Under the pieces are notes generated by a model. It saw only the letters and a list, made by a program, of their open reading frames with translations, was not told the origin of the DNA and made no database searches. Below are positions 30,576-55,248 of a stretch of 64,000 nucleotides of DNA, in pieces. Numbering within the stretch: position 1 is the first letter of the stretch; each line of letters starts with the position of its first letter. The position numbers were made by a program, and so were the translations under genes. Source of the DNA: Candidatus Woesebacteria bacterium. Lineage in GTDB: Bacteria > Patescibacteriota > Microgenomatia > UBA8517. The stretch is taken from the NCBI GenBank assembly GCA_963716475.1, contig OY970314.1:500790-564789 (forward strand), read 5' to 3'.

Positions 30576-30601
30576 AATACTCGTTTACTACATTGAGCTT
30601 T

Positions 30602-33241: not shown

Positions 33242-33242
33242 A

Positions 33243-34355: not shown

Positions 34356-34759
34356 TTTGTTGTCACATCTATTTTATCATTGGTATCACCGAAAAAGGGG
34401 CCTTGCTTTACTGAGACTGCCTTGCACGCCTTAATTATCTTTACACTATGCGTTCCTCTTATAATTAGAATGCTATCTCCTTTTTTGATTGTTTTTGCCT
34501 GTGCAAAGACGCCCTTTTTGTCAAAAAACTCAACCCTCATAATTCCTTTCGTGATATATAAGAATTGTTCAACACGATCAATCTTTCTTTCTACAGTCTT
34601 ATGGTAATGGGGTGCTTCTACAAAAGATGTTCCTCTTTTAAAAATGGCAACTTGCAAATTTAGGTCGTCTGGAGAGAGAAAGGTTGACGACTTTACGTCA
34701 GCCGTGTTTCTAACTACAAGGGCACAGAGATCGTTATCGACAATTATCTTTTCTAACAT
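34352..34759 (-). CDS. WxcM/FdtA-like cupin: NDP-4-keto-6-deoxyhexose 3,4-ketoisomerase
   Basis: 135 aa cupin. GTSFVEAPHYHKTVERKIDRVEQFLYITKGIMRVEFFD...IIRGTHS. 4-bp overlap with the aminotransferase. Confidence 0.6.
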   Translation of the reverse strand: MLEKIIVDNDLCALVVRNTADVKSSTFLSPDDLNLQVAIFKRGTSFVEAPHYHKTVERKIDRVEQFLYITKGIMRVEFFDKKGVFAQAKTIKKGDSILIIRGTHSVKIIKACKAVSVKQGPFFGDTNDKIDVTTK

Positions 34760-34773
34760 AGATTTTTCGGCAA

Positions 34774-35946
34774 TTATATACTTTTAAAGGCAAGTTGAAA
34801 ACTCTCCCTAACCACCTTGTTTGTGTAATAATTGGCTATCCTTTTTCGAGCTTCAAACCCCATTTTCCGAGCCAATTTTTCATCTTCTAAAAGATTAATT
34901 ATAGAGTTAACCAACTTCTTCTTATCGTTAGAGTTGAATAAATATCCGGATACACCATCTTCCACCTCCTCAGTCGAATTTGATGTCCTAACTACCGGAG
35001 TTTGACATGACATAACTTCTAGAACAAAATAACTACACGAACCCGCACCGTCCCCCACCCCTGCATAAACTGCACACCTTGCCAAAGAATATACTGCCGC
35101 TAGGTCCTTGTTTTCAACAAACCCCAATATTTTAATATTATGTGAGATTCCTTGTCTTTTAGCATACTCCAAAAGTCTATTTCTATTTTTACTTATATCG
35201 AGTGGGGATATTATTAAAAGTAATGCGTTTGGAATTTTTTTAACAACTTCTCTAAAACCACTCATTATAAAGGGTGTTCGTTTAAGAGGTGTTAAGTCGG
35301 TACTGTGCAGAACTACTAACTTATTATTATATTCTAATTCTAATAATCTACTTCTTACCCTGCTAAACTTTTTTGTATCAACAATTAGGTAGGAAGGTAT
35401 AGATTTCTTTCCATATACTTTTGCTATCCACTTGGATACATCTTTATTTACAGTCATTATTACTTTTGATACCTTAGTAAAATGAATGTCTAACCCACCG
35501 TAAAGAATACTGGCAATCTTCATTAGTATTTTAATAATAAACGGTTGTCCGTTAATCATTTTTTTGTCATGGAAAAAAGCAAACGGCTCAAAAACAAATT
35601 GGATGTGATTTTTGGGGCTAATAACATTGCCAAGTATATTCATTGGAAACATACTCGTAACAATTCTGTAATACCTAGGCAAAACTCTTCTAAGTATAAA
35701 TATCTCCTTTAGAAGAATAATCGGAAATATAACCCAGTAAATTATTCTATTTGTCGAAAATTGAGCGATCTTAACAATCTTAATTCCTAACTTATCAAAA
35801 TCATTCTTTATCTCATCATTATAATCCTCAGTGAAAATGGTAACGTCATAAATATTAGATAGATCTTTTAAAACGGCTAGTATATATTTAGTTCCGCCAG
35901 TCCAATAACAAAAGTGCGGATGCAACCATGCAATTTTTAATCTCAT
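34774..35946 (-). CDS. glycosyltransferase family 4-like (GT-B)
   Basis: 390 aa. The C-terminal domain AVYAGVGDGAGSCSYFVLEVMSCQTPVVRTSN has GT-B donor-site topology. Confidence 0.65.
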   Translation of the reverse strand: MRLKIAWLHPHFCYWTGGTKYILAVLKDLSNIYDVTIFTEDYNDEIKNDFDKLGIKIVKIAQFSTNRIIYWVIFPIILLKEIFILRRVLPRYYRIVTSMFPMNILGNVISPKNHIQFVFEPFAFFHDKKMINGQPFIIKILMKIASILYGGLDIHFTKVSKVIMTVNKDVSKWIAKVYGKKSIPSYLIVDTKKFSRVRSRLLELEYNNKLVVLHSTDLTPLKRTPFIMSGFREVVKKIPNALLLIISPLDISKNRNRLLEYAKRQGISHNIKILGFVENKDLAAVYSLARCAVYAGVGDGAGSCSYFVLEVMSCQTPVVRTSNSTEEVEDGVSGYLFNSNDKKKLVNSIINLLEDEKLARKMGFEARKRIANYYTNKVVRESFQLAFKSI

Positions 35947-36006
35947 TTGTTTTTACTGCTAGTTTCTTAATTTATTTTTTAAATATAGTCTCACTTTAAT
36001 AATTTC

Positions 36007-37371
36007 TTATCTATGTTGAAATTTTACCCAAAAATCATAAAATACTGAAAAGGCAGTAGTAAAAACCAAAACTCTCCAAAAAATACTAAATCTATCTAAA
36101 TTACCCACAAGGGCCAAAAAGTCTGTGTGAGATGATATGATTCTGTAATACAGCGTTCCTCCAAAAAACATTAAAAGATAGAAGCAACAAAAAAATATTA
36201 AGAAAAAGGTCTCTCTTTTGAGCCTAAATCGCGTTAAAAACCCAAATGTAACTAAAGACACGATTGGTATTATCATCTCCAATATTATAGTCCTGCAAAC
36301 CAAAACAACCGGATCTATTAGCGTTTTCAAACTAAAATTATTCAAGGAAGAAAAAGTCTTACCGATAAAATCAAGCTGTGATAAATACGCATTATTATTA
36401 ACCAAATTATAAGATGCTATATACTTTGTGGATACGAAACCTACAAAAAAATTGAAAATAAAAAACAAGAATACTTCTTTCAGAAACTTCCTTTTAATTA
36501 AAGAGTAGATAAACAAAAAAAGGAAAACGAAAATCCAAACCGGCTCATTTCGTGTAAATCTCGAAAACGCAAATAACAAACCGGACAAAATTAAATAACT
36601 GAATTTCTTTTTAGACATCCAATTTATCAAATAGAAAGTAGCTATAACCAAATAAGTTGACTGAATCAAATCCGTTAATGCGTATAAAGACTGTTCGTAA
36701 AATAATGGATAAAAAGAAACTAAAAAAGCTAAAGACAAAGATAATTTTCTGTTTAAGATTTTTCGACTAAAGGCGTAAACGCACAGAACTAAAGAAGAAA
36801 AAATCAAGGAATAAATAAATTGAGGGTTAAGACTCCCCGCTATATAGAAAATAGCATGAAGAATGGATGTTAATAAAGGATAAGAAATATCATAAAAGGA
36901 TTGTGACGGGAAAAATATACTTTGACTTAAAACCATCAGTTTGGCTCTGTAATCATAAAGTTGTACAGCATCCCACATCCAAACCGGCCAGTATAAAGTC
37001 CTGATTAAAGATGTCAGAAGAAAGAAGGCAATTCCTCCAATAAGGATTCTGTCAAATAAATCAAGACTTTTTATTTTTTTATGGAGAGAATGCCATTCAA
37101 GATTAATCGAATTTTTGAAGAACACCTTATTTAATATTATTAAAAATAGATTAGATAGAGTCAAAAATAGAAAAACATATAAATAATTAAGTTTAAATCC
37201 CAGAAAACTAAGCAAAAACATACCAAACGTTGAAAACCCTATTCCAAGAATTAATCCCGATGATAAAATTTCTATACCGCTAAACTTAAGACGGAACAAT
37301 CTTAAAAAATTAACACCCAGATAGAGAATTAGAAATACAAAAAATATCTGTTTCAAAATATTTATTATCAT
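36007..37371 (-). CDS. polytopic membrane protein, possible GT-C transferase or repeat-unit polymerase (hypothetical)
   Basis: 454 aa, at least 12 TM. Loop YWPVWMWDAVQLYDYRAKL. Extremely AT-rich. Confidence 0.4.
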   Translation of the reverse strand: MIINILKQIFFVFLILYLGVNFLRLFRLKFSGIEILSSGLILGIGFSTFGMFLLSFLGFKLNYLYVFLFLTLSNLFLIILNKVFFKNSINLEWHSLHKKIKSLDLFDRILIGGIAFFLLTSLIRTLYWPVWMWDAVQLYDYRAKLMVLSQSIFFPSQSFYDISYPLLTSILHAIFYIAGSLNPQFIYSLIFSSLVLCVYAFSRKILNRKLSLSLAFLVSFYPLFYEQSLYALTDLIQSTYLVIATFYLINWMSKKKFSYLILSGLLFAFSRFTRNEPVWIFVFLFLFIYSLIKRKFLKEVFLFFIFNFFVGFVSTKYIASYNLVNNNAYLSQLDFIGKTFSSLNNFSLKTLIDPVVLVCRTIILEMIIPIVSLVTFGFLTRFRLKRETFFLIFFCCFYLLMFFGGTLYYRIISSHTDFLALVGNLDRFSIFWRVLVFTTAFSVFYDFWVKFQHR

Positions 37372-38513
37372 TTATCCATTTTAATAATCCCCCAAACGTC
37401 TTTCTCCTTAAAATCTTTAGGATTATATCCCGAATGCAATAATTCCTTTACATAATTACCATCCTCTTGCCTTTCAAGAAAAATTACCTCTTCTGATTTT
37501 ATAGTAAAATCCGGCCATATATAGTCTTTTTGATACTGAGTGTCATATATGGGATGCAGGAAACCTTTTGCTAAAAGAATGTAGTCAAAATCATTTATAT
37601 TAATTCCAGAGTAATAATTTGTTAATTTTCTGTTACCCAAAAATGGTCTGTAATACCTCGAGTCCGCATCAACAGTATGTGGAGAGGCATCTTCGGGCAA
37701 AAGAATGGAAGATCCATCAGGCGTATTATCTTTCACTAAAGTAACAATGTCATACAAAACACCCCACTTGGCTTGCATTTTTTGATCATAAGTGTAATTG
37801 GGGTGAGCAGAAATATAAACTAGGTCTGTCATTGTGTCATTAAGTGTATTAAAAAAATTAACTACTATATAGCCAAGGGAAAGCGAAAATATACAAATTA
37901 ATATAACTGTTTTTAAATCCCACGATAGGGAAATGCCAGACCTCAAGTTTGAACGTAAGCGTAAACAAATACTTGTACCAAAAGGATTCCATGATCTACG
38001 ACGTGCAGGGAAAGAATATTTTATCTGCGGAGTAGGGTCGTTCTTGTTGTTCTTACCGACAATGAGCAGCTTATTAAATATTTCCTTCGTCTTAGGCGTT
38101 CTGCAAAACTTTAAAATGATTAAAGACAGACTCAAATAAAGAATATTCAAAAAATTTTGCGGTTGAATATGAAATGTCGCAAAAACATAATTTGAGTATT
38201 TGACAATATTTGAAACCAGCATGATCCAATAAAAAATAATTATCGGGAGAATAAGTAAGGAGTTCAGGCTCAATATAAAATTTTCCAAACTTCCAGACCT
38301 ATAATTTTTATCCTTTATCCACAAATATAATAGGAGAATAATTGAAATAATAGAAAAGAATAAGAAAAAGCGAGAGTCAACAAAAATATATTTTTTCAAA
38401 AAGCCTGTATACATATAGGATTCTAAAATCAAAAAGAAAAACGAAAGACTTATTAGATAGGGAAAGATTACTTTGTTTACCTTTAAAATCTCAGCAAAAT
38501 AATTATTTTTCAT
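37368..38513 (-). CDS. membrane protein with 4-5 N-terminal TM and a C-terminal extracytoplasmic domain (hypothetical)
   Basis: 381 aa. Arg-rich cytoplasmic loop (FPARRRSWNPF...RLRSNLRSG); the other frames are closed there, so no frameshift. Confidence 0.4.
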   Translation of the reverse strand: MKNNYFAEILKVNKVIFPYLISLSFFFLILESYMYTGFLKKYIFVDSRFFLFFSIISIILLLYLWIKDKNYRSGSLENFILSLNSLLILPIIIFYWIMLVSNIVKYSNYVFATFHIQPQNFLNILYLSLSLIILKFCRTPKTKEIFNKLLIVGKNNKNDPTPQIKYSFPARRRSWNPFGTSICLRLRSNLRSGISLSWDLKTVILICIFSLSLGYIVVNFFNTLNDTMTDLVYISAHPNYTYDQKMQAKWGVLYDIVTLVKDNTPDGSSILLPEDASPHTVDADSRYYRPFLGNRKLTNYYSGININDFDYILLAKGFLHPIYDTQYQKDYIWPDFTIKSEEVIFLERQEDGNYVKELLHSGYNPKDFKEKDVWGIIKMDK

Positions 38514-40201
38514 TTAGGAGTTTCTTGAGTTGGGTAAAAACCGGATTTGATATTCCCAGGCTGAAACATTTTAAACTTACCCACACTTGGAGCACACGGC
38601 AATTGCGAATTAACACACTGATCGCCATTAACCGGCATCCAAATATAAAAAGACTGATCCGAGTAACTGACAGTAACAGATCTAACTAAAGAGCTCTCTT
38701 CTTTTTGAACAATAAACAATTCTGGTTGTTCTTTTAAGGTTATTGCTTTAAAAAGGTAGCTAGATATTAGAAATATAAAAACCAAAATGATTGTTGACTT
38801 AAAAAAATCGTATTTAAAAAAATTAACAAAGAATGAAGACAAAATTAAGGAAATCGAAACAAATATGAATATTCCCATATATCTAAGGTCGGGGGCAGTC
38901 AAAAAGGTATACAAAAGAGTTGCTGTGCTGGCCAAAACTAGAAAGTTGACCTTTCTTATATCTGTTATGGAGCTTAATTGTTTTTTTGATTTACCCGTAG
39001 AATAAAAATACATAAATATCAAAAAAAACAAAAGAAATATATAATACAGACTAGGGTTATTTTTATTGTAATTAAACCAACTTATAAACCAATCCCAAAA
39101 ATTAGCATTCACAGAACTCAAATAATATGGTCCAGGCAAACGTGCAAAACCAGTTATAACATTATTAATGTTCTTTAGTTGTTCTAACGGAACTTGCCAT
39201 TTAAAGTTTAGGCCAAAATATGGGAATGGGAAAAGGGCCCAGCCGGACAAAATTAGATTTCTAATTATAAAACTCACCAAAAATATAAATGAAAGGAATA
39301 AAATGTACACATTTTTTTTCAGTAAAACTTTATCTTTCAATTCAATAAGTATAAATAATGAAAATAAAGCTAAAACGATAAAACAAGAGAATTTTGAAGT
39401 TGCTGCCAGTATCAGTATCGGCATAGACAACACCAGGTTTTCTCTTTCAAAGAGCATGAAATAGAAATTAAACAACAATAGAAAAATTGCCATACTCAGA
39501 TCGGTTGAAAGTGAATTAATTTGGCCAATAAAATAATATTGACCAATAAAAATTGATAGAATTAAAATGGAAAAAAGTCCAAAAAAATAGGCTAAAATAT
39601 TTTTTGGTTTTCTAAACAAAAATAGAATAATCTGAGAAGCAAAAACAAAAACCAAAAAAGAGTTCATGACATGGCTTGAGGAATTTGTAAAAACGCCGTG
39701 ATTCATAATTGCTGCTAAAAGAAAAGTTACGTTGTTTATACCCAAAGGGAATTGTAGATTAGCTAAACCCTTAACAGAACCGTAATCAGTTAGCCACTTA
39801 ATTGAATTAAGATGGTAAAGATTTGTGTCATACCACGTAACTGGCAAGTTAGATAAAAAGGAAACAAAAAAGGCTAAAATTACAAAAAGCAATATTTTTT
39901 TATAATCAATATGTTGAAATATATTCCTTAATATAAGTCTCCAGTTAAATTTTATATTTCTTAAATTTAACAAAAATAGGAAAAGGTTAAATGCAATCGA
40001 GTAAGTTAGCACCTTACCATTTAATGGATGGAAAAGAGAAATGATTTCCAAAACCAATACAAAAGAAAACAATCCAAACCAAAAGTTGTAAAAAAAATCA
40101 ATTTTTTTGTTATCTTTCTTAAATATTATTCTTAAAACAAAGAAGCCGATGTTAAAACAAAACAGGAACCAAAATATCCAAGCAAGAATTATATAAATCA
40201 T
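38510..40201 (-). CDS. polytopic membrane protein (hypothetical; candidate polymerase or GT-C)
   Basis: 563 aa, at least 12 TM. C-terminal region with Cys (DQCVNSQLPCAPSVGKF). Confidence 0.4.
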   Translation of the reverse strand: MIYIILAWIFWFLFCFNIGFFVLRIIFKKDNKKIDFFYNFWFGLFSFVLVLEIISLFHPLNGKVLTYSIAFNLFLFLLNLRNIKFNWRLILRNIFQHIDYKKILLFVILAFFVSFLSNLPVTWYDTNLYHLNSIKWLTDYGSVKGLANLQFPLGINNVTFLLAAIMNHGVFTNSSSHVMNSFLVFVFASQIILFLFRKPKNILAYFFGLFSILILSIFIGQYYFIGQINSLSTDLSMAIFLLLFNFYFMLFERENLVLSMPILILAATSKFSCFIVLALFSLFILIELKDKVLLKKNVYILFLSFIFLVSFIIRNLILSGWALFPFPYFGLNFKWQVPLEQLKNINNVITGFARLPGPYYLSSVNANFWDWFISWFNYNKNNPSLYYIFLLFFLIFMYFYSTGKSKKQLSSITDIRKVNFLVLASTATLLYTFLTAPDLRYMGIFIFVSISLILSSFFVNFFKYDFFKSTIILVFIFLISSYLFKAITLKEQPELFIVQKEESSLVRSVTVSYSDQSFYIWMPVNGDQCVNSQLPCAPSVGKFKMFQPGNIKSGFYPTQETPK

Positions 40202-40359: not shown

Positions 40360-41460
40360 ATGACTAACATTTTCCAGAAATTGTACCATAAAGACTTACA
40401 AAAAACCTATCGGGGCTTCACGGCTTCGGACGGGGATGTGGTTTTGGACAATGTTATCGGAGACATCCCCGATCTTCAAACCTATTTTGAAAACCTAAGG
40501 GAGAATGTCTTACCGGATAGCAAAATCCTGATTTCCTACCACAACCCGTCCTGGGAGCCGGTTTTGACTCTTGCTTCAAAACTGGGGCTCAGAAGGAATG
40601 TTGGGATTCAAAATTGGTTAGACCTGAACGATTTGAAAAACATTCTAAATCTTTCGGGATTTGAGGTGATAAGGTCACAAAAAAGATTTTTCGGTATCAC
40701 AACCATTACTATCGTCCGCCCAATCAACTATCAACCATCAACCATTACCCATCAATATAGTGTATCTATCGTGATCCCCGCTCGTAATGAGGAAGGGAAT
40801 ATTCCAAAAATTCTACCTAGTATTCCCAAATTTGGTAAATCGCAGGAGATAATTTTTGTGGAAGGGCATTCAAAAGATAATACATGGGGTAAAATCCAAA
40901 AGACTGCTTCAAAAAAATATCCAAAAAACATTTCGGTCATCGGTCTTAAACAAACAGGCAGGGGAAAGGCGGATGCTACCTGGCTCGGACTTTCAAAAGC
41001 AACCGGAGATATCTTAATGATCTATGATGCCGACCGGACGGTTGACGCTAAAGATCTTCCCAAATTTTATAACGTTCTGGCTAAAGGAATTGGAGAGTTT
41101 GCCAACGGAAGCCGTATGGTTTATCCGATGGAACAGGATGCTATGCAGGCTCTAAACAAAATCGGAAATCAAATGTTCAGCCGGCTGTTTACTTGGATTT
41201 TGGGACAGCATTTCAAAGACACACTTTGCGGAACCAAAGCTTTCTTCCGGAAAGATTTTCAAAAGTTCAGGCGTTCAAAAACCGATCCTTTCGGGGATTT
41301 TGACCTGATTTTCGGGGCTGTCAGAAATAGTCTTAAAGTAATTGAAATACCTGTTCGGTATAAAGAGCGGGTTTACGGATCAACCAACATAAATAGATTC
41401 CGTCACGGGTTACTTCTTGCCAAAATGGCAATTCTTGCCTTTAAGGAATTTAGGACTTAA
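40360..41460 (+). CDS. GT2 glycosyltransferase (DPM1/GtrB-like) with an N-terminal truncated methyltransferase-like domain
   Basis: 366 aa. The C-terminal ~230 aa are GT2 (VSIVIPARNEEGNI...MIYDADRTVD...CGTKAFFR...RYKERVYGSTNI). The N-terminal ~130 aa (DVVLDNVIGDIPDLQTYFENL...ILISYHNPSWEPVLTLASKLG...LNDLKNIL) match the C-terminal half of the neighbouring split methyltransferase but lack SAM motif I. Confidence 0.7.
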   Translation: MTNIFQKLYHKDLQKTYRGFTASDGDVVLDNVIGDIPDLQTYFENLRENVLPDSKILISYHNPSWEPVLTLASKLGLRRNVGIQNWLDLNDLKNILNLSGFEVIRSQKRFFGITTITIVRPINYQPSTITHQYSVSIVIPARNEEGNIPKILPSIPKFGKSQEIIFVEGHSKDNTWGKIQKTASKKYPKNISVIGLKQTGRGKADATWLGLSKATGDILMIYDADRTVDAKDLPKFYNVLAKGIGEFANGSRMVYPMEQDAMQALNKIGNQMFSRLFTWILGQHFKDTLCGTKAFFRKDFQKFRRSKTDPFGDFDLIFGAVRNSLKVIEIPVRYKERVYGSTNINRFRHGLLLAKMAILAFKEFRT

Positions 41461-42131
41461 CGGCGACGAAGTACTCAATAAAAGCTAGGTTTTTGAAATA
41501 TTTCTCCAAATACTTATTCGCAAAGTCTGTAATCACTGGGATTTTAACTGGGATTAGAAGTCCGAAGTCGTGTTTGACGAGTCTTAATTTTGAATTTTTA
41601 TCACGAAGTGTCGTTTCTATCATTAACTTTAAATCATTAAACGCTACACGTTTGTGTGGCCCTTCTTTCATTTTCCAACCCAATTTTTCCCAAACAATCA
41701 TAAGCGGTTCCCAAATAGGATTTGCCATTGTGCAAATGAGGATCGTCCCATTATCCATCAACCCGGAGATCTTTCGAAAGGTCTCTTCCGGTTTTTCCAA
41801 ATGCTCGATAACATCACTCATAAAAATATAATCAAACTTTTCTTTCGGCCAAACTGTTGAAAACTGCAAGTTTTTTGAATCTTTGTATTTGAGCCTTGAT
41901 ATTATGATCATCTGACCACTAATATCCGTTCCGTACCCGTATCTTGGATCCAATGAGGCCAAAAGGTCTCCCTGTTCCACACCCTACTTCAAAAACTTTT
42001 TTGTTTTTCGGAATTAGTTCTCCAAGAAGTTTTTTTAAACTTTCGTAATAGTATGAATACTTTCTCTTGCCATAATCATAGTTTTTCGCTACACGATCGA
42101 AATGTTGCTCGACAGACAAATCTGATTTCAT
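41450..42131 (-). pseudogene. class I SAM-dependent methyltransferase interrupted by a +1 frameshift immediately after motif I
   Basis: Fragment A (41919-42131) ends ...VFEVGCGTGRPFGLIGSKIRVRNGY*. Fragment B (41450-41980, GTG start) begins (V)EQGDLLASLDPRY... and carries ...FDYIFMSDVIEHLEKPEETF...NGTILICTMANPIWEP. A one-nucleotide shift within GGGAGACC (about 41960-41967) would join them. Confidence 0.6.
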
Positions 42132-42922
42132 ATCACTCCTCCGACAAATCTGCGTCCGTAATTATGAAGCATATGTAAAAATAGAATAATTATATTTCCG
42201 GTATATTTTTTGACAACTTTTTCATCTTCCGAAAGTAATTTTTCCGTCATCGTTTTGGTAATGGTTGAAGGTTCTACCCTAAACCCCGAGAGGTATTTGT
42301 CCGTAACTACGGGCATTTTATGGCTTGTAATTTTCAGCCACAAATCATACTCCGTTACAAAATCGGACGTTCCCGTAAAAGGACCGAATTTTTCCCAAGC
42401 CTTTTTCGTTACAAAAACGGAAGGTTGCATCAGATAGTTGGTTATCAGAAGGTAGATCTTGGAATTTAAAGAAAGAAGAAAATTTTTATAACAAGTAACA
42501 ATCTTTGCGATTTCGCGACCATTTGAATTTATCACCTTTCCCCTGCCCGCAAACCAGAGGGCACTGGAATTTGAAATATACATCTTTGAAATTTCACTTA
42601 AGGCTCCGGACAGATAGACGTCGTCGGCATTGATATAAGTTAAAATATCCCCAGTTGCTTTACCTAACCCTGTATTTATTGCGTCAAGTTGTCCTTTGTC
42701 TTTTCTTGATTCGAATTTAATGACTTTCGGGTATTTTTGTGCACATTCTTGAATTATCCCAAGAGTTCCGTCAGTGGAACCGCCGTCCTGAATAATCACT
42801 TCCAAATTAGAGTATTTCTGATTTACAATCGACTCAAGTGTCTGGCCAATATATTTAACTTTATTAAATGAAGGTATTACTACCGAAATAAGAGGATTCT
42901 GCATTCTGTAATCTATAATCAC
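42128..42922 (-). CDS. glycosyltransferase family 2
   Basis: 264 aa. ISVVIPSFNKVKYIGQTLESIVNQKYSNLEVIIQDGGSTDGT...YINADDV. Confidence 0.8.
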   Translation of the reverse strand: MIIDYRMQNPLISVVIPSFNKVKYIGQTLESIVNQKYSNLEVIIQDGGSTDGTLGIIQECAQKYPKVIKFESRKDKGQLDAINTGLGKATGDILTYINADDVYLSGALSEISKMYISNSSALWFAGRGKVINSNGREIAKIVTCYKNFLLSLNSKIYLLITNYLMQPSVFVTKKAWEKFGPFTGTSDFVTEYDLWLKITSHKMPVVTDKYLSGFRVEPSTITKTMTEKLLSEDEKVVKKYTGNIIILFLHMLHNYGRRFVGGVI

Positions 42923-43257
42923 TAATCTTTCTTCTTGGTTTTTAGCGCTTCCAGTCTTACCAGCTCTTCCAGTTTTTTCTCAAGCTGCTTGGTTCTAACA
43001 TATGCAACTGCAACCATCGAAATTACCAATATGAAGCCTCCAATGACCATAAGATCAAAAACCCTTGTTACTAAAAAAGTCTTTGCAAACGATTGAAGAA
43101 GTTCCGGAAAAATTATAATGATAATGGCAATCGTCCACATAATGAGCCAGGAAACTATCTCTGTGCCTCCTAATTCCCCTCTTTTAAAGTGAAGAACGGC
43201 AAAATATATCATGCTGAAAGCGAAAAGCAGGGCAATAATTTGTAGTCCGATAATCAT
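42922..43257 (-). CDS. small 3-TM membrane protein with a C-terminal coiled-coil tail, DUF2304-like (occupies a GtrA-like position)
   Basis: 111 aa. MIIGLQIIALLFAFSMIYF...VSWLIMWTIAIIIIIF...VFDLMVIGGFILVISMVAV, then KQLEKKLEELVRLEALK. Confidence 0.5.
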   Translation of the reverse strand: MIIGLQIIALLFAFSMIYFAVLHFKRGELGGTEIVSWLIMWTIAIIIIIFPELLQSFAKTFLVTRVFDLMVIGGFILVISMVAVAYVRTKQLEKKLEELVRLEALKTKKKD

Positions 43258-43261
43258 TTTG

Positions 43262-44895
<1,634 letters not shown>

Positions 44896-44906
44896 TTAAA
44901 TGCAAT

Positions 44907-46067
44907 TTAGGCTACCCAGTAGCCTCTTACAAACAACATTATCAAAATGACCCCCAGTGCAGCCGAGATAAAAATAGCCGGCCTGGTATATTTCCTAAAT
45001 TGGATAATCAGGTATGGTAAAAGGAAAACCGTGGGCACAAGAACATACCTTGGCATTGAAGAAAATGTTCCGGTTAGGGTTGCCAAGAGGAGAGCACAAA
45101 TTGAGAAAACCCAGTAGCTTAACCTCATTTTCTTAACAAAAGCTATTAAATATGCCAAAGGAACTAAGGTAAACGTAAATTCCAAAAACGCGTTAAAAAA
45201 CGACAAGGTAAAAATGTTTGTTGTTAAAAAGATTTTTAAATATCTGTAAATAACTTGCGGAAGAAAGATTATACCGTTTCCGATTCTCCCTGCTCCAAAA
45301 ACAGGCTGACTTGTCAAAAAATACAGAGGATCGTTAAATGCCGTTTTCAGGTAGTACATATATATCAAAATTCCCAAAGGAGTTATTAAAGTCCAGATAT
45401 AATTAATCCCTTTCTTACTTTGAAATGCCTCTACCAAATACAACGGAATAAGCAAGACTCCCGTAATCCGGGTAGCAGTAGAAAGCGCGATTAAAACCGC
45501 AGCCCAAAAGAAATTGCCTTTTCTGATTAAATAAACCGAGGAAACTGTCAAAAGCAGAAACAGGCTTTCCGTGTATATCGAGCCAAAGAAGTAGGAGGTC
45601 GGGAATGCCAAAAGAAAAATTACGGACAAAAAAGCAGTATCTTTTTTAAAATCGATATTTATAAGTTTATAGAAAACATACAGAGCGGCTAGGAAAAATA
45701 AATTGGACAGTATTATTCCGGAGTAAAAATAAGCCGGGTCGGTAAAAAGGTTGGTATCAAGATTCGGAACTCTCGGAAACACAAACGAAAATAGTCTGAT
45801 CAAGATGGGGAACAGTGGAAAAAAGGCTTGGGAATATTGAGCCAGGTAGCCGTCCTGAGCGATCCTTAAGTAATGAACCCCGTCAAAGTTCCCAAAACCC
45901 CAAATCCAATTTGGTAAATGGGTAATCTCCAAAACTCTGTCCGCATACGGAAATCTGGCTCCGAAAACCGGTAAAAGATAAATTGACAGGAAAGCCGCTA
46001 TAAAAAGAAGTATTCTCCAACCCAAAAAATACTTAAATATCTTCCAAAATACTTGTTTATCTGTCAT
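44907..46067 (-). CDS. PIG-V/Gpi18-like (Mannosyl_trans2) GT-C-fold mannosyltransferase
   Basis: 386 aa, polytopic. WGFGNFDGVHYLRIAQDGYLAQYSQAFFPLFPIL matches the W.fDgv.Y..IA..GY..e....AFfPl.P signature of the PIG-V family. Confidence 0.55.
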   Translation of the reverse strand: MTDKQVFWKIFKYFLGWRILLFIAAFLSIYLLPVFGARFPYADRVLEITHLPNWIWGFGNFDGVHYLRIAQDGYLAQYSQAFFPLFPILIRLFSFVFPRVPNLDTNLFTDPAYFYSGIILSNLFFLAALYVFYKLINIDFKKDTAFLSVIFLLAFPTSYFFGSIYTESLFLLLTVSSVYLIRKGNFFWAAVLIALSTATRITGVLLIPLYLVEAFQSKKGINYIWTLITPLGILIYMYYLKTAFNDPLYFLTSQPVFGAGRIGNGIIFLPQVIYRYLKIFLTTNIFTLSFFNAFLEFTFTLVPLAYLIAFVKKMRLSYWVFSICALLLATLTGTFSSMPRYVLVPTVFLLPYLIIQFRKYTRPAIFISAALGVILIMLFVRGYWVA

Positions 46068-47545
46068 GTTTTTGATTGTATAACATCCTTTTTGGAAAAC
46101 AGATAGAGTTCGTCGGCAAACTTGATTAACTTATACTTTGAATCTTTAAGCAAAAGGTTTTTAAGTTGTATCGCCTCCTCAAACGTTATCGGGAAAAAAC
46201 CGTCTCCTTCCTGTCCCGGGGTCAGATTCAGGACTACATAATCAGGGTTAATTACCTGATAATCCAACCTAAGTAAAACCACCTGCCCGTGGGTAAACCT
46301 GGTAGCCAAGGCATTTTGAGTCATAACTAAGCCGTCACGGGGTGTTTTCTGAATGATATTATCCAGGTATTTAACCCCCGCATTTTGTGCGTAAAATGCA
46401 GGATTATAGGCAAGACCCAAAGGACCCCTCAAGACAAATCTGTGTAGGACAAATACGGTCAGCATCAGAAAAATTGCATAATAGGTAATTACCTTTTTGT
46501 GCTTGATTGCTTTTTCAATTTTAATTAAAGGGTATAGTGCACCCATAAACATAAGGGGTGACAAGGTGGCACTATAATGCATTCCCAAGTCCCATCCTCT
46601 GGGTACAGCCGAAAAAAATCTTTCGAAGAAATTTTCGAAAATTGCCGGCAGAAGTGAAATTTCGGATAGCGGTAAAAAACCAAAACTCAAAAATGAATAG
46701 AAATAGGTCTTCAATTTAATTGATGGGGAGATAAACCTCTGAATAAAATCCCCCGCCGAGGAAACAGGCGCCGTTTGATAGAAATACACACCACCGGAAA
46801 AATAGGGAATAATATATTTAACTGCGGTAACGCCCCATAAAATACTGAGAGCTATCGTTATTAATGAAAATTTCCAATTGGCTCTGCTTTTTATTAAAAG
46901 AAAAATTCCCATAGCAATTCCCAAACCTGCAAATGATTCTTTAAAACCCAAAGTTATTACCAAAAACAGGAAATATAACAACCATTTCTTTTTAGATACC
47001 GCCCAAAACATCAACATAACCGGAAGCACGGCCACGGTGGTGTCATGAAAATCGGTGATAACGGCATTTTGCAAACCTACAAAGCCCAGATAAGCAAATA
47101 CTAAACTAAATACGGCAATTTTATTTTTAAGAAATTTATCGGCTAATTTAAAGGCAATAATTGCAGAAATACTTACACATAGTGTCTGGGCTACAAGAAT
47201 AATTTCCTGCCTATCGGTCAGCCAATATAATGGACTAAATAGAAAAATGCTGGGGTTGAAATGATCGGCAAATATCATCTTCATGGTATTTCCAAAATAG
47301 AAATGATAAACCAGGGGAGCTTTAAGTTGAGAAACTTTCCAAATGGCGGTATCAAAAATACCAAAATCAAAATATCCTGTTTGATATTGCCAATGCCGAT
47401 TTAAGGATACGGATAAAGCCGCCAAAGTCCACACAAAAATGAAAACGTAAGTTATTAAGGAGATATGCTTTTCAACCTTATTTGAAAATAAAGAAATAAA
47501 TCTCAAAAACGATAATTTACAGTTTTTTAAAAAATTATTTTTCAC
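46064..47545 (-). CDS. DUF2079-like polytopic membrane protein (GT-C-like)
   Basis: 493 aa, at least 12 TM. Loop QYQTGYFDFGIFDTAIWKVSQLKAP. Confidence 0.45.
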   Translation of the reverse strand: MKNNFLKNCKLSFLRFISLFSNKVEKHISLITYVFIFVWTLAALSVSLNRHWQYQTGYFDFGIFDTAIWKVSQLKAPLVYHFYFGNTMKMIFADHFNPSIFLFSPLYWLTDRQEIILVAQTLCVSISAIIAFKLADKFLKNKIAVFSLVFAYLGFVGLQNAVITDFHDTTVAVLPVMLMFWAVSKKKWLLYFLFLVITLGFKESFAGLGIAMGIFLLIKSRANWKFSLITIALSILWGVTAVKYIIPYFSGGVYFYQTAPVSSAGDFIQRFISPSIKLKTYFYSFLSFGFLPLSEISLLPAIFENFFERFFSAVPRGWDLGMHYSATLSPLMFMGALYPLIKIEKAIKHKKVITYYAIFLMLTVFVLHRFVLRGPLGLAYNPAFYAQNAGVKYLDNIIQKTPRDGLVMTQNALATRFTHGQVVLLRLDYQVINPDYVVLNLTPGQEGDGFFPITFEEAIQLKNLLLKDSKYKLIKFADELYLFSKKDVIQSKT

Positions 47546-48569
47546 CCGAGATTATTTTATATATTTCCAATGTATCTTTAGAGGTCTTATCCCAGGAATA
47601 GTCCCTTGGAAGTTTTTTATTAATATTTGGGTTTAAAATAGCTTTTGCCATTGATTTTATGTCATTTGGGTCACAGTAAGAGAAATCATCTCCCATAACC
47701 TCCACCAGACATTGAGACCTGGCTATTGCTACCGGTGTACCACAAGCAACTGCCTCAACGGCCGGGAGGCCGAAACCTTCGTAAAAAGAGGGTTGAACAT
47801 ACACCGTCGCCAAATTATATATCGCAGCCAAATCCTCATCCGGAATAAACCCCGGCCGGATTGTGTTTGTCCAATCAACATCTTTGAGATGCTTAAGCTC
47901 GGCGTGGCGCAAATCGCTGTTTTCGATTCCTTTGGCTTGCTTACCGCAAATTACCAACGGCATTTTTGCAATTCTGCAGGCTGCGACCATTCCCGGAATA
48001 TTCTTGTTGTAATTAACATCACCGACATACAAAGCAAAACGGTCAGGAAGGGTATACTTCTCTTTAGCTGCAATTAGTAAATCACGATTAGCTATTGGTT
48101 CAAAAACGGTACGGGGAGCAAGATAAATTACATACACTTTTCTTGGGTCCACCCCCAAAAATCTGCAAATATCCTTTTTGGAAGTTTCTGAAATCGTGAT
48201 AATCGCATCTACATTTTTCCTAACCATTTCTTTATTTTTCAAAAAATTAACTTTACCTCTCACGCCGGAAGGGTAATGCTTGGGGTAAATTAAAGGAATC
48301 AAATCGTGTATCGTCAGGATAACTTTGGCTTTAGGTTTGTCGGAAGGTAAATCCGTAAAAAATGGTCTGAAATATTGAAAGTGGACAACGTCAAATCCTA
48401 AAAAACCTCTTTTTGAAAAATCAAACTCGTATATTTGTATATCCTTATGTGGAACAAGTTTAAATCCCTGCAAAAGCTCCCTGGTATTCACTCCGATCCC
48501 CCTGACAGCGTGCCCCGAAGTTAAGGGGCCTGAATCAACTGCAACCTTAAGCATGTTTAAATTATACAT
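47535..48569 (-). CDS. glycosyltransferase family 4
   Basis: 344 aa. VYVQPSFYEGFGLPAVEAVACGTPVAIARS. Confidence 0.8.
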   Translation of the reverse strand: MYNLNMLKVAVDSGPLTSGHAVRGIGVNTRELLQGFKLVPHKDIQIYEFDFSKRGFLGFDVVHFQYFRPFFTDLPSDKPKAKVILTIHDLIPLIYPKHYPSGVRGKVNFLKNKEMVRKNVDAIITISETSKKDICRFLGVDPRKVYVIYLAPRTVFEPIANRDLLIAAKEKYTLPDRFALYVGDVNYNKNIPGMVAACRIAKMPLVICGKQAKGIENSDLRHAELKHLKDVDWTNTIRPGFIPDEDLAAIYNLATVYVQPSFYEGFGLPAVEAVACGTPVAIARSQCLVEVMGDDFSYCDPNDIKSMAKAILNPNINKKLPRDYSWDKTSKDTLEIYKIISGEK

Positions 48570-48619
48570 AATTACTTACTTTACACATAATTAGCCGTTA
48601 TACTATTTAGAACCGCCTA

Positions 48620-49348
48620 ATGTTATTCGGAATGATCAATAAATCAAAACATTTTGAAAATTACTTATATTTACTTGTTCTTTCCTTAGCCAATTTTTGG
48701 ATCTGGCAAATTTATTCAAATAATTTTATTCTCGGGATTATTTTATTAGCAATTGAACTTGGGCTTTTCGTTCTAATCACAAAAAAGGATTTGAAAAGAA
48801 ATTGCATATTCACTATTTTCATATCGGTTTTGCTCCTATTGGTTCTTGGCGTCATTCTTTTAATGGGTGAGTTTGACAACACCTTATTAACCACCTCTCC
48901 AACCGAAACAAGTATTCTTAACCAACGGCATGGTTATTTAGCTGAAGGTTTAGGAAAAATCTTTACTAATAAGTACGTTCTGCATTTCTACAAGCTACAA
49001 GAATATGGCACGGCTACCGGAAAGTATTTACAAAATGTTTTTTATAGCCTAGACCCAAATCTATACTTTTTCCGAAGCCACCCAAGAGAGAAAGCCGGGA
49101 TTGACGAATACAATAAATACTCCCCCATCGTTTTACCTCTTTTTGTAATAGGCGTTTTATTTTTAACAATTAACTACCATAAATATAAATTTTTGGTTTT
49201 ATATTCCATACCGGCAATATTATTTACGGGTTTCATCAGTCCCAAGTACAAACTTGGTCCACTGCTAATGTTTCCGCTTATAAATATAATCCTTTATCTG
49301 GGACTTATTGCGGTCATATCGAAAGTCAGACCATTATTTAAAAAGTGA
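48620..49348 (+). CDS. membrane protein (hypothetical)
   Basis: 242 aa, about 6 TM. 4-bp overlap with the downstream PMT_2-like gene. Confidence 0.4.
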   Translation: MLFGMINKSKHFENYLYLLVLSLANFWIWQIYSNNFILGIILLAIELGLFVLITKKDLKRNCIFTIFISVLLLLVLGVILLMGEFDNTLLTTSPTETSILNQRHGYLAEGLGKIFTNKYVLHFYKLQEYGTATGKYLQNVFYSLDPNLYFFRSHPREKAGIDEYNKYSPIVLPLFVIGVLFLTINYHKYKFLVLYSIPAILFTGFISPKYKLGPLLMFPLINIILYLGLIAVISKVRPLFKK

Positions 49349-51003
49349 AAACAAAAAAAATATTTCTACTGATATTATTTGTCATTATTTTATGTGCCGC
49401 CTGCTTCGTCAGGTTATACAAACTTGGGGAAATTCCGGCCGGGGCCTACCTTGACGAGGCTTCGCTGGGATACAATGCCTATTCGCTATTATTAACAGGC
49501 AGAGACGAATTTGGCAAAAATTGGCCGATATATTTTAGAGCTTTTTCGACCTTCCAAGACTCACTTTACGGCTATTTTAGTATTATTCCTGTTTATTTTC
49601 TTGGTTTAAGTATTTTCTCAACACGATTGGTATCGGTAATTTCGGGGTCAATTGTTGTTCTGATTACTTTTTTACTTTTTTATTACTCGGATCTCAAAAA
49701 TAAGTTAAGTCTGGCGCTTCTTGCCGGCCTTACGGTAGCATTTACACCTTGGGCGATCTACCAAAGCCGCGTGGCTGTTGGATCTAATTTAGGCTTGGCT
49801 TTAACAGCCATTAGCATCTTATTATTATTTTTATCCCTGAAAAGGGAATGGTTTTTTGTGCCCGCTTGTGCCTTTTTTGGGATTGCTTCTTATGCTTACG
49901 CCGGCCAGCGAATTACGGGCATATTATTTCCGATTGTCTTCGTACTAATTAATAGGAAAATATTTTCGCAATCTAAGAAGCTGGTCGTGATTGGTTTTGC
50001 GCTCTTAATACTTATTATGCTGCCGCAATTTATGGCACTATCTCACACGGGTTCATTAGTCAGATACCAAACACAAGGTTATACGCAAGAAAGTACTTTT
50101 CTGAAAAATGGAGATTCTTTAGTCAAATTACCGATTTTTGTAGGTTGGCCTTTGTATATAGTTAGGCAATTCACAAGTCAGTATCTTTCCGACTTTTCTC
50201 CCAGAAGCCTATTCTTTGAGCCGGAACCGCAACTTGTTAGATCTATTCCGGGCTTAAGTGTTTTCTATGTCTGGATGATTATTCCTTTCTTTATCGGTTT
50301 CGCCCGATTATGGAAAGAAAAATCAAATCCCTTAATACAAATCATATTTCTATTGATGATTATCGGACCTTTGCCGGAAGCTTTAACAGGTGACCCTTTC
50401 TATACCTTAAGGATGCTGCCCGGCTTATGGGGAATGACACTACTGGTGTCGTTCGGTATTTATGCCATCTTTGACAAGTTCAAACATAACTATGCAAAAA
50501 TCCTGTTGGCGGCATTTCTGATTGCTATTTCCGGTCTTAATTTTTATATAAGCTACTTTATTTTATTAAAACATGAACGTTCCGTATATTTCGGCTACCC
50601 TTTCCAGGTCCTGGCGGAAATTACGGAAGAAAACAAAAGTCAGACGTTTGTTTTGGATTCTGAGATTTATGACGCTCCTTATATCTGGATGGCTTTTTAT
50701 AAAAAATATGATCCTGTGGAATTGCAAGCTCAAACACCACCAGGCTTACTTAATCACTATTATGACGATTTGACTTTTTACAAATATAGAACGATCGGTA
50801 ATGTGGAAGTAAGAAAGATAAATTGGGGCGTTGACCAATGTAAAGACGAATATCTGGTTGGTGATATAACAGCTATATCTGACACTCAGGCCAAAGAACA
50901 CAAATTTACTCTTATTAGAGAAGTTAAAGATTTAACAGGAAAAACCATACTCTGGATTTATCGCACTAATCCCCAGCCGGAGTGCATCAATACTACAGAC
51001 TAG
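49345..51003 (+). CDS. PMT_2/ArnT-like GT-C-fold membrane glycosyltransferase (paralog 2 of 6)
   Basis: 552 aa. Loop-1 motif GAYLDEASLGYNAYSLLLTGRDEFGKNWPIYFRAF; second motif YQSRVAVGSNLG. Confidence 0.65.
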   Translation: MKTKKIFLLILFVIILCAACFVRLYKLGEIPAGAYLDEASLGYNAYSLLLTGRDEFGKNWPIYFRAFSTFQDSLYGYFSIIPVYFLGLSIFSTRLVSVISGSIVVLITFLLFYYSDLKNKLSLALLAGLTVAFTPWAIYQSRVAVGSNLGLALTAISILLLFLSLKREWFFVPACAFFGIASYAYAGQRITGILFPIVFVLINRKIFSQSKKLVVIGFALLILIMLPQFMALSHTGSLVRYQTQGYTQESTFLKNGDSLVKLPIFVGWPLYIVRQFTSQYLSDFSPRSLFFEPEPQLVRSIPGLSVFYVWMIIPFFIGFARLWKEKSNPLIQIIFLLMIIGPLPEALTGDPFYTLRMLPGLWGMTLLVSFGIYAIFDKFKHNYAKILLAAFLIAISGLNFYISYFILLKHERSVYFGYPFQVLAEITEENKSQTFVLDSEIYDAPYIWMAFYKKYDPVELQAQTPPGLLNHYYDDLTFYKYRTIGNVEVRKINWGVDQCKDEYLVGDITAISDTQAKEHKFTLIREVKDLTGKTILWIYRTNPQPECINTTD

Positions 51004-51014
51004 AACAAATATTT

Positions 51015-51746
51015 TCAGTACGAGTCTTTAATCCAGTCGAAATAGCGGATAGAGAGAAGTTCGTGGAATGACCTTACCATATCACCCGGGAAACGGACTC
51101 TTGTCTGTTTATCGTTTTTCCATACCACAGGTACTTCTTTAATAGAAAATCCATACTTTTTAGCCAAAAACAATGTCTCTGAATCAAAACCCCAACGAAA
51201 AATTTTCGTCTTATGAAAAATTTGTTGGGCGGCTTCTCGGGAAAAGCATTTAAAACCGCAGGTAAAATCTGTGACCTTGGTGTTTAATATTAATCGCGAA
51301 AGCAAAGTAAATATTTTTCCAAGATTTTCCCTTAAAAAAGGCTGATGCACAACAACTTCTGCTCCCTTGACTTTTCTGGTCCCTATAACCACATCATATT
51401 GGTTGATAAATTGACTGATCTTTTTTATTTCATCTATGGGTGTCGAAAGGTCTACATCCATAAATAATCTAAACTCACCAACTGCCGCCAACATTCCTGT
51501 TTTAACAGCATATCCTTTTCCACGGTTGTTTCTATAACTTATAAGCCTAAAGTCTGATTTCTTCTTGAGAAATTTGAGTCTTTCAAGAGTGTTGTCAGTA
51601 CTTCCGTCGTCCACGACAATAAGTTCCCACGGCTTATCAAGTCCCCGCAAATACCGGAGTATATTAACTATGTTATCAACACGTGTAGCCTCGTTATAAC
51701 AGGGAACAATAATAGACCAGAAAACGCTTTTTTGTTTTACTGTCAC
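51015..51746 (-). CDS. GT2 polyprenyl-phosphate sugar synthase (DPM1/GtrB-like)
   Basis: 243 aa. IIVPCYNEATRV...LIVVDDGSTDNT...FMDVDLSTP...CGFKCFSREA. Confidence 0.75.
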   Translation of the reverse strand: MTVKQKSVFWSIIVPCYNEATRVDNIVNILRYLRGLDKPWELIVVDDGSTDNTLERLKFLKKKSDFRLISYRNNRGKGYAVKTGMLAAVGEFRLFMDVDLSTPIDEIKKISQFINQYDVVIGTRKVKGAEVVVHQPFLRENLGKIFTLLSRLILNTKVTDFTCGFKCFSREAAQQIFHKTKIFRWGFDSETLFLAKKYGFSIKEVPVVWKNDKQTRVRFPGDMVRSFHELLSIRYFDWIKDSY

Positions 51747-51768
51747 AGCATATAATATAACCTACGTA

Positions 51769-54117: not shown

Positions 54118-54129
54118 CAGCCTACCTGA

Positions 54130-55236: not shown

Positions 55237-55248
55237 ATAAAACCGATC

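Follow-up and report, generated by a model that had tools for sequence, protein, structure and literature searches.

A conserved gene cassette for predicted polyprenyl-phosphate-sugar synthesis and GT-C-type transfer in a surface-glycan locus of Candidatus Woesebacteria

Bacteria of the Candidate Phyla Radiation (CPR, or Patescibacteria) are ultra-small and mostly episymbiotic, and their surface probably mediates attachment to the host. To our knowledge, nothing is known experimentally about their cell-surface glycans. The ~0.98-Mb genome of a member of Candidatus Woesebacteria (CPR/Patescibacteria) analyzed here devotes at least 64 kb to glycan genes, including those for at least 13 enzymes of the GT-C type, and almost the whole stretch under study (contig OY970314.1; positions 1 to 64000, hereafter the window) is a single surface-glycan locus. 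The question raised by this locus is which of its many glycosyltransferases (GTs) work together and how a sugar activated in the cytoplasm could reach an acceptor on the outside of the cell. An answer is suggested by some seven genes at positions 42128 to 48569, which make up a conserved unit that has clear limits and is expressible. In the explanation that we consider probable, a soluble synthase and its small membrane partner would make a lipid-linked sugar, which would be flipped across the membrane and transferred to a surface acceptor by a GT-C enzyme resembling eukaryotic PIG-V. The principle is already established in streptococci, lactococci, and mycobacteria, and the cassette is a new example; a mechanism known from Gram-positive bacteria and mycobacteria is thereby extended, not changed.

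Gene order and conservation of the cassette

The cassette consists of seven open reading frames (ORFs) tightly packed on the minus strand which, read from 48569 down to 42128, form a single operon. The first gene (47535..48569) encodes a cytoplasmic GT4-family glycosyltransferase of the GT-B fold (Pfam Glycos_transf_1, 1.7e-21, plus Glyco_transf_4). It is followed by the genes for a DUF2079 membrane protein (46064..47545; PF09852, 6.9e-39), a PIG-V/Gpi18-like protein of 386 aa with ~8-11 transmembrane (TM) segments (44907..46067; PF04188, 2.7e-15), and the GDP-L-fucose synthase Fcl, a GDP-4-keto-6-deoxymannose 3,5-epimerase/4-reductase of the Fcl/GFS type (43927..44865; Pfam Epimerase/GDP_Man_Dehyd). 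The last three genes code for a soluble GT2 of the GacI/WpsA/PpgS/DPM1 class of polyprenyl-phosphate-sugar synthases, referred to here as GT2b (43262..43930; Pfam GT2, 6e-23), a DUF2304 protein of 111 aa with three TM segments (42922..43257; PF10066, 5e-17), and a second soluble GT2, referred to here as GT2a (42128..42922; PF00535, 4e-28). GT2a is TuaG/EpsE-like, occupies the position of the lactococcal WpsC, likely starts at ATG 42904 (258 aa), and matches generic glycan-elongating GT2s in NCBIfam. Stop and start codons overlap at the GT4/DUF2079, DUF2079/PIG-V-like, and Fcl/GT2b junctions. A preliminary description of this DNA, made from the sequence alone, had listed the last six of these genes; all six ORFs were found on the minus strand at the same coordinates, and Pfam bore out the family name given to each of them. 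A scan of the 41-49 kb region for promoters and terminators returned no more sites than were obtained with shuffled sequence and was uninformative on the operon boundaries, and tRNA and Rfam scans of the window gave no matches.

The same arrangement is found in related genomes. The comparison, based on phmmer and hmmsearch scans of loci fetched via GT2b or Fcl, comprised nine related CPR (Microgenomates) loci, L007-L012 and L077-L079; the near-identical short contig L001 was kept outside this set. The order GT2b, DUF2304, GT2a is present in all nine, and the PIG-V-like gene lies directly upstream of the Fcl/GT2b cassette in eight (the exception being L078). Fcl separates the PIG-V-like gene from GT2b in seven of the nine, being absent from L010 and L011, as well as in the window itself, and its stop codon overlaps the GT2b start (ATGA) both in the window and in L077-L079. 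In L001-L009, L011, L012, L077, and L079, the PIG-V-like gene has an orthologue of the GT4 gene directly upstream, with the DUF2079 gene intervening in the window, L001, and L011. The latter gene, which is found in a single related locus (L011) besides L001, is an accessory insertion in the cassette. Because the gene order repeats in nine independent related loci, the arrangement is not due to chance.

Among the cassettes that carry the respective genes, identity to the window protein amounts to 72-88% for Fcl, 52-83% for DUF2304, 54-75% for GT2b, 48-67% for GT2a, 44-67% for GT4, and 39-81% for the PIG-V-like protein. The donor-side genes, Fcl and DUF2304, are the most conserved and the GT-C gene is the most variable, a pattern that is consistent with a shared donor being delivered to varying acceptors.

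A different picture was initially suggested by loci fetched via the PIG-V-like protein, from which the six genes did not seem to be a conserved unit; the loci fetched via GT2 and Fcl overturned that view. The three PIG-V-fetched contexts, all from Woesebacteria (L002, L004/5, and L006), contain an array in which most of the GT-C-type genes are PMT_2, followed by GT2, GT4, and PIG-V-like genes and, downstream, by Wzx and GT2 genes; the last two are preceded in L002 by a short-chain dehydrogenase/reductase (SDR) gene and in L006 by a further PMT_2 and a further GT2. DUF2304 and DUF2079 are absent from these three contexts.

The records of four metagenome-assembled genomes in the comparison (L007, L008, L010, and L012) are labeled "uncultured Gammaproteobacteria bacterium," yet they carry the Woesebacteria-type cassette with 53-86% protein identity. 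These labels look wrong.

The predicted synthase pair and the GT-C-fold proteins

The longest ORF of GT2b opens at GTG 43951 (229 aa), whereas ATG 43930 gives a protein of 222 aa. The latter is the likely start, as judged from the length of the homologues (222-232 aa); it produces the ATGA overlap with the Fcl stop codon in the sequence ...AAATGAGA... The best NCBIfam match of GT2b is PpgS (NF058614; 1.6e-27, full length), followed by AglJ and then by dolichyl-phosphate-hexose transferase. The PpgS match scores 96 bits against an equivalog cutoff of 370, and, since GT2b falls under every NCBIfam equivalog cutoff, its sugar specificity is left unassigned. In the Protein Data Bank (PDB), the best match, over the whole catalytic domain, is the dolichol-phosphate-mannose synthase (DPMS) of Pyrococcus furiosus, and GtrB and ArnC are matched as well. 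The GT2b motif D87-A-D89-G-Q91-H is aligned with D89-A-D91-L-Q93-H of DPMS, an enzyme in which the metal is bound by Asp91 and Gln93 and the DXD motif includes Asp89. The similarity extends to the amphipathic C terminus, but GT2b, which has no true TM helix, lacks the four that are found in DPMS. These NCBIfam and PDB alignments agree with the preliminary description, which had called the protein DPM1/GtrB-like: GT2b belongs to the DPM1/GtrB/PpgS class.

The DUF2304 gene begins after a 4-nt gap behind the GT2b stop codon, and its product has three hydrophobic helices and matches nearly the full length of the PF10066 profile (positions 2-105 of 106), as had been proposed from the sequence. The accompanying suggestion that this protein takes the place of a GtrA-type flippase was rejected: the only Pfam match is to DUF2304 and not to GtrA (PF04138), and the characterized homologues GacJ, WpsB, and Rv3632 are synthase subunits that serve as membrane activators or anchors. 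Eukaryotic DPM1 relies in an analogous way on the small membrane partners DPM2/DPM3, although DUF2304 is neither DPM2 nor DPM3. GacJ, a DUF2304 protein of 113 aa, forms a detergent-stable complex with the GT2 enzyme GacI and lowers the Km of GacI for undecaprenyl phosphate from 18.7 to 1.1 uM; Rv3632, a member of the same family, stimulates PpgS, and WpsB activates WpsA. The published interface of WpsA and WpsB is one at which the small protein touches the GT2 through its C-terminal helix. EpaI/EpaJ and WpsA/WpsB are further pairs of the GacI/GacJ kind, and natural fusions of the GT2 synthase with its DUF2304 partner are known. Given the published roles of GacJ, Rv3632, and WpsB, the DUF2304 protein is best read as a putative activator or anchor of GT2b and not as a flippase. 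By their sequences, GT2b and DUF2304 are predicted to be a pair of the GacI/GacJ (WpsA/WpsB, PpgS/Rv3632) type, and the two proteins would, by analogy, form a complex.

The best match of GT2b among the GTDB representatives is 67% identical. After Microgenomates, its nearest relatives, with 40-43% identity, come from DPANN archaea (L013-L018, Woesearchaeota/Nanoarchaeia contigs). The DUF2304 gene lies directly downstream of the GT2 gene in five of these six DPANN loci and in one locus from Polyangiales, which is consistent with the pair having been transferred between CPR bacteria and DPANN archaea.

The two polytopic proteins of the cassette have no solved relatives according to PDB sequence searches, and the PIG-V-like protein is not matched by any NCBIfam model. 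The Pfam assignments of both are above the cutoffs: 57.1 bits against 22.4 for PF04188, with a match confined to residues 53-207 of the PIG-V-like protein (profile positions 53-206 of 443), and 134.6 bits against 28.2 for PF09852. AlphaFold2 models were obtained with a pLDDT of 90.4 and a pTM of 0.91 for the PIG-V-like protein (alignment of 35 homologues) and a pLDDT of 90.3 and a pTM of 0.91 for the DUF2079 protein (alignment of 33 homologues). Foldseek comparison with the PDB returned GT-C-fold proteins as all of the top 30 matches of the former, a glycosylphosphatidylinositol (GPI)-transamidase subunit included, and as all of the top 23 matches of the latter (STT3, DPY19, PglB, AftA, ALG9, ArnT, and the GPI-transamidase subunit 8imx_U), with probabilities of ~1 and TM-scores of 0.4-0.56. 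Across both models, the matches comprise STT3/AglB/PglB, ArnT, ALG9, ALG6, ALG3, AftA, EmbB, PimE, GPI-mannosyltransferase I, DPY19, Pmt4, and the GPI-transamidase subunit. Both proteins can be confidently predicted to adopt GT-C folds.

An acidic motif in the first luminal or extracytoplasmic loop is a hallmark of GT-C enzymes (PMC6801728). In the PIG-V-like protein, the sequence F61-D62-G-V-H-Y-L after TM1 is invariant in the 35 homologues; D62 has been placed within the protein's own homologues and not by alignment with the catalytic Asp of eukaryotic PIG-V. Similarly, D47 and D52 of the DUF2079 protein (Y-D-F-G-I-F-D, in loop 1, just after TM1) are invariant. The DUF2079 model also contains a C-terminal alpha/beta domain (approximately residues 390-472), which is read as extracytoplasmic. 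The preliminary description had named the product of 44907..46067 PIG-V-like and its DUF2079 neighbor GT-C-like; Pfam matches, models, and, in the second case, the invariant D47/D52 pair speak for both names. The possibility that the two are paralogues was ruled out by profile-profile alignment, in which hhalign detected no relation (probability 0.5%); they represent separate GT-C families.

Contrary to the remark in the preliminary description that PIG-V-like enzymes are rarely annotated in bacteria, this protein has more than 2,800 homologues, PF04188 is found in all those listed, and they are routinely annotated as "Gpi18-like mannosyltransferase" or "mannosyltransferase family protein." Among the named homologues, the closest are encoded in genomes of Candidatus Woesebacteria and Microgenomates. 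For DUF2079, 545 homologues were detected. Literature searches on DUF2079 and on Patescibacteria in combination with GT-C found no paper.

One of the DUF2079 proteins, P0212 from Patescibacteria (710 aa), is a natural fusion with an N-terminal GT2 domain. This fusion was not used as Rosetta-stone evidence, as its GT2 domain is not clearly a lipid-sugar synthase. Because NCBIfam recognizes that domain only as a generic GT2, P0212 is silent on the donor used by DUF2079.

Eukaryotic PIG-V/Gpi18 (GPI mannosyltransferase II, CAZy family GT76) adds the second mannose to a GPI intermediate, with Dol-P-Man as donor. The likeness of the PIG-V-like protein to this enzyme consists of the PF04188 match above the gathering score, the GT-C fold, and the invariant Asp shortly after TM1. 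Unlike the eukaryotic enzyme, it matches the N-terminal third of the profile only, has 386 aa against 443 profile positions, and comes without the context of a GPI pathway. Its function in a CPR bacterium must differ from that of eukaryotic PIG-V at least in the acceptor. Taken in its strong form, the preliminary description would lead to a lipoglycan pathway resembling the synthesis of GPI anchors or phosphatidylinositol mannosides: the GT4 enzyme would glycosylate a membrane lipid at the cytoplasmic side, as PIG-A/PimA do, the product would be flipped, and the PIG-V-like enzyme would add mannose from polyprenyl-phosphate-mannose made by the DPM1-like GT2 and its partner. Such a pathway would account for the pairing of GT4 with the PIG-V-like gene, which was seen in every examined locus with a PIG-V-like gene and enough upstream sequence, for the above-cutoff PIG-V match, for the alignment of GT2b with Dol-P-Man synthase over the full catalytic domain, for the weak matches of GT4 to GlcN-PG synthase, IagA/BgsA, and MGlcDAG synthase, and for the presence of ManC within the window. 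We nevertheless regard it as improbable, given how little of the PIG-V profile is covered. With E-values of 1e-8 to 1e-3, the glycolipid-type matches of GT4 are generic and weak, and other GT4 families are matched better; at the family level, GT2b is closest to an enzyme for GalNAc, not mannose; the conserved neighbor is Fcl, not a gene of the mannose pathway; and inositol or GPI genes were not seen in the window.

The predicted pathway and its alternatives

The preliminary description placed a GDP-fucose synthase in the middle of the module, and Fcl fits that role. It matches the NCBIfam Fcl model over positions 2-304 of 308 (1.6e-84), with 284 bits against an equivalog cutoff of 500, which it misses. 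In the PDB, it is closest to Fcl proteins (2.8e-63; 1e-57 for 1bsv from E. coli), with GDP-mannose 3,5-epimerase next at 1e-28. The residues that we take to be catalytic in E. coli Fcl (Ser/Thr107, Cys109, Tyr136, Lys140, and His179) all have counterparts in the alignment with 1bsv, Thr replacing Ser; the paired segments are G-T-I-C-A-Y-P and G-S-S-C-I-Y-P, Y-G-L-A-K and Y-A-I-A-K, and S-H-V-I-P-A-L in both proteins. NCBI and JGI apply the name GDP-L-fucose synthase to close homologues, which share >=80% identity and fall into more than 100 clusters.

These findings, together with those on the synthase pair and the GT-C folds, lead to the following preferred scheme. On the cytoplasmic face, soluble GT2b, held on the membrane and activated by DUF2304, would use a nucleotide sugar to attach a single sugar to polyprenyl monophosphate. 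The lipid-linked sugar would then be flipped to the outer face, the candidate flippase being the Wzx-type protein encoded at 25521-26807, which has orthologues close to the PIG-V-like gene in relatives. Outside, the PIG-V-like GT-C enzyme would pass the sugar to a surface acceptor, such as a cell-wall glycopolymer, a glycolipid, or a protein, and the DUF2079 enzyme may perform the same outer transfer in this genome. One of the three cytoplasmic transferases would draw on GDP-L-fucose made by Fcl. We hold the general architecture, a polyprenyl-phosphate-linked donor used by a GT-C transferase, with good confidence; the variant in which the monosaccharide lipid is the direct donor is only slightly favored. 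If the scheme is right, the cassette could yield a lipid-linked sugar donor, the first to be defined in a CPR bacterium, and the first function for bacterial PIG-V-like (COG5542-type) proteins and for DUF2079 proteins.

The scheme has well-studied counterparts. GacI/GacJ/GacK/GacL of Streptococcus pyogenes and EpaI/EpaJ of Enterococcus faecalis belong to four-component transmembrane glycosylation systems that add GlcNAc side chains to rhamnan. In those systems, as in the cassette, a soluble GT2 synthase is followed by a ~110-aa, 3-TM DUF2304 partner, the GT-C transferase is encoded in the same cluster, and the candidate flippase is of the Wzx and not of the GtrA type. The differences are that the GT-C families here are PF04188 and PF09852, that Wzx is outside the cassette, that Fcl is translationally coupled to GT2b, that GT2b scores below all equivalog cutoffs, and that the host is a CPR bacterium without known rhamnan. 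In Mycobacterium tuberculosis, PpgS (Rv3631) is the best NCBIfam match of GT2b, and Rv3632 is a stimulator from the DUF2304 family; in contrast to that system, GT2b is far below the PpgS cutoff and the GT-C family differs. The mycobacterial GT-C enzyme acting with PpgS in the galactosamine decoration of arabinogalactan is presumably Rv3779. The cassette is most likely a further multi-component transmembrane glycosylation system, a variant of the GacI/GacJ arrangement in which a cytoplasmic GT-A enzyme is combined with a separate TM protein. The combination of a GacI/GacJ-type synthase with a coupled Fcl and a PF04188 GT-C protein in CPR bacteria is not described in the literature searched.

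The preliminary description proposed polyprenol-phosphate-linked mannose or fucose that is made inside, flipped, and transferred outside by a GT-C enzyme. The conserved cassette and the two GT-C-fold models support this general logic, but the identity of the sugar is unproven: the best match of GT2b, PpgS, is a GalNAc enzyme and is below the cutoff. ManC, reported in the preliminary description at ~7.5 kb and found at 7542-8741, is 35 kb from the cassette and beside a different priming enzyme. As for fucose, the product of Fcl could be the substrate of GT2b/DUF2304, giving polyprenyl-phosphate-L-fucose (or another 6-deoxyhexose) that the PIG-V-like enzyme would use for surface fucosylation from outside. 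No other gene of the cassette is as well conserved as Fcl, and the Fcl stop codon overlaps the GT2b start. A similar logic is seen in the arn (pmrF) operon (ArnA/ArnB/ArnD, ArnC, ArnE/F, and ArnT), which also encodes a nucleotide-sugar tailoring enzyme, a GT2 undecaprenyl-phosphate-sugar synthase, and a GT-C transferase together, and ArnC and ArnT turn up among the sequence and fold matches of the cassette proteins. However, TM helices are part of ArnC itself, the cassette contains nothing that corresponds to the ArnE/F flippase, and the arn system differs in its sugar pathway and in having lipid A as the acceptor. GT2a and GT4 are equally possible users of GDP-fucose, and Fcl is absent from two of the nine cassettes. 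We know of no precedent for a polyprenyl-phosphate-L-fucose donor. A literature search for "phosphate-fucose" with undecaprenyl and GT-C did not find the phrase, which is weak evidence of absence. On balance, we treat the fucose donor as a tentative and rather unlikely proposal.

GT2b-DUF2304-GT2a follows the order of wpsA-wpsB-wpsC in the Lactococcus cluster that assembles the pellicle polysaccharide on undecaprenyl monophosphate, and this identity keeps the main rival of the preferred scheme in play. In L. lactis, WpsC elongates GlcNAc-P-C55, the Wzx protein WpsG flips the product, and the GT-C enzyme WpsJ carries out the transfer. By analogy, the polyprenyl-phosphate-monosaccharide made by a WpsA/WpsB-type pair would be a primer, elongated in the cytoplasm by GT2a and GT4, one of which would add L-fucose, then flipped by Wzx and transferred or polymerized as a block onto a wall polymer by the PIG-V-like and/or the DUF2079 enzyme. 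The cassette resembles the wps genes not only in its gene order but also in the DPMS-like catalytic machinery (DxD plus Q) of a synthase that lacks a TM segment. The primer would also suit the presence of GT2a after DUF2304 in all nine related loci and the tight coupling of GT4 to the GT-C gene, it would give Fcl the ordinary role of supplying GDP-fucose to a soluble GT, and it would fit the position of Wzx near the PIG-V-like gene in relatives: directly after it or past one SDR gene in L002, L004, and L005, and two genes further in L006. However, the group A carbohydrate (GAC) cluster of the GacI/GacJ system has neighboring soluble GTs too, yet its lipid monosaccharide is used directly, so that gene order cannot discriminate between a direct donor and a primer. 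Moreover, the separate WbaP-type priming enzyme, Wzx, and Wzy in the window could account for the soluble GTs, and the cassette is without polymerase or chain-length genes, including recognized polymerization genes of the WpsH/WpsI type. This rival must be taken seriously; we consider it possible, though clearly less probable than the direct use of the lipid-linked sugar.

Several observations weigh against the preferred scheme of GT2b/DUF2304 synthesis, flipping, and transfer by the PIG-V-like enzyme. GT2b, as noted, does not reach any NCBIfam equivalog cutoff. No ORF in the window matches the GtrA family in Pfam, no flippase gene lies inside the cassette, and the only Wzx (Polysacc_synt) of the window is 16 kb away from it. 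No gene for Gmd, the GDP-mannose 4,6-dehydratase, was found among the ORFs of the 64-kb window or, in L007-L012 and L077-L079, within 10 kb of the cassette. The window encodes three more candidate polyprenyl-phosphate-sugar synthases in addition to at least 13 GT-C-type proteins, and this abundance makes the donor-enzyme pairings ambiguous. Finally, GT4 and PIG-V-like genes are paired in other Woesebacteria (L002, L004/5, and L006) without adjoining GT2b/DUF2304 genes, so that the GT-C enzyme does not strictly need them as neighbors.

The last two points would be expected if the locus were a mosaic of unlinked neighbors, in which the PIG-V-like and DUF2079 enzymes are fed by other synthases and GT2b/DUF2304 serves other GT-C enzymes. 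The same could be said of L078, which holds Fcl-GT2b-DUF2304-GT2a without a PIG-V-like gene, and of the modular shuffling that is evident from the insertions at 48570-55248 and of the DUF2079 gene in the window relative to L077. However, the PIG-V-like gene lies directly upstream of Fcl/GT2b in eight of nine loci in which its product spans 39-81% identity, that is, the adjacency is of long standing, and the start and stop codons of the operon overlap or nearly abut. An accidental assembly of this kind appears improbable.

Flanking genes and the surrounding glycan locus

Downstream of the cassette, a gene for a SAM-methyltransferase (41453..42110, minus strand) is frameshifted in the window. 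A 176-aa ORF has Pfam methyltransferase matches, and the intact 219-aa orthologue from L077 matches the window in tblastn in two pieces and different frames (42110-41970 and 42001-41453); either a frameshift (pseudogene) or an assembly error would explain this. It is met by a convergent gene on the plus strand (40360..41460) for an AglJ-like GT2 with a methyltransferase-like N terminus, recognized by Pfam and by NCBIfam (AglJ, 3.7e-30; also dolichyl-phosphate-hexose transferase and ArnC). Equivalent convergent GT2 genes, for products of ~360 aa, are found downstream of the cassette in L007-L009, L012, L077, and L078. This protein is a second candidate polyprenyl-phosphate-sugar synthase; its gene travels with the cassette, as does that of the methyltransferase.

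On the upstream side, the closest long relative, L077, has a gene for a 281-aa GT2 directly before the cassette GT4, where the window has a ~6.7-kb insertion (48570-55248). The insertion contains a soluble GT2 (51015-51746, minus strand) that resembles PgfS, dolichyl-phosphate-hexose transferase, PpgS, and ArnC and is divergent from a 782-aa GT-C protein of the YfhO family (51769-54117, plus strand), as well as three polytopic proteins without a Pfam match (54130-55236, 49345-51003, and 48620-49348). The region 51015-54117 looks like a second glycosylation pair, of the CsbB/YfhO kind. The window further differs from L077 in the inserted DUF2079 gene and in the lack of a 497-aa ORF; these differences represent modular gain and loss of GT-C modules.

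At the far end of the window (56094-63730), a 214-aa, 5-TM protein without a family match (62334-62978) comes after an AglJ/PpgS-like GT2 (62975-63730) and before four tandem PMT_2 GT-C genes; together they may constitute another set of a synthase, a membrane partner, and a GT-C array. A tandem GT-C array is conserved in L002, L004, L006, and L077-L079.

Altogether, 13 window proteins have GT-C-type Pfam matches. PMT_2 genes lie at 12084, 17261, 23245, 26820, 36007, 56094, 57653, 59019, and 60705, a DUF6056/GT_STM0557_N gene at 20016, and the remaining matches are those of the PIG-V-like, DUF2079, and YfhO proteins; three or four further polytopic proteins are without a family assignment. The locus also encodes Wzy (13543), Wzx (25521), the WbaP-type priming transferase (6881-7531) next to ManC, approximately ten GT4/GT2 enzymes, an aminotransferase, several methyltransferases, and, in total, four candidate polyprenyl-phosphate-sugar synthases. 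A short RecO and a DUF4012 gene are present in the window as well, which presumably fits a CPR/Patescibacteria genome.

The GC content of the region 28000-40200 is 0.29-0.35 versus ~0.40 elsewhere. This island codes for FkbM-type and other methyltransferases, a DegT-type aminotransferase, GT2 and GT4 enzymes, and three polytopic proteins, two of which (37368-38513 and 38510-40201) have no Pfam match at all; this part of the locus has probably been acquired laterally or is hypervariable. At 22447-23248, two overlapping short ORFs, one of 180 aa with only the C-terminal Glycos_transf_1 domain and one of 117 aa just upstream, look like a split or frameshifted GT4 gene.

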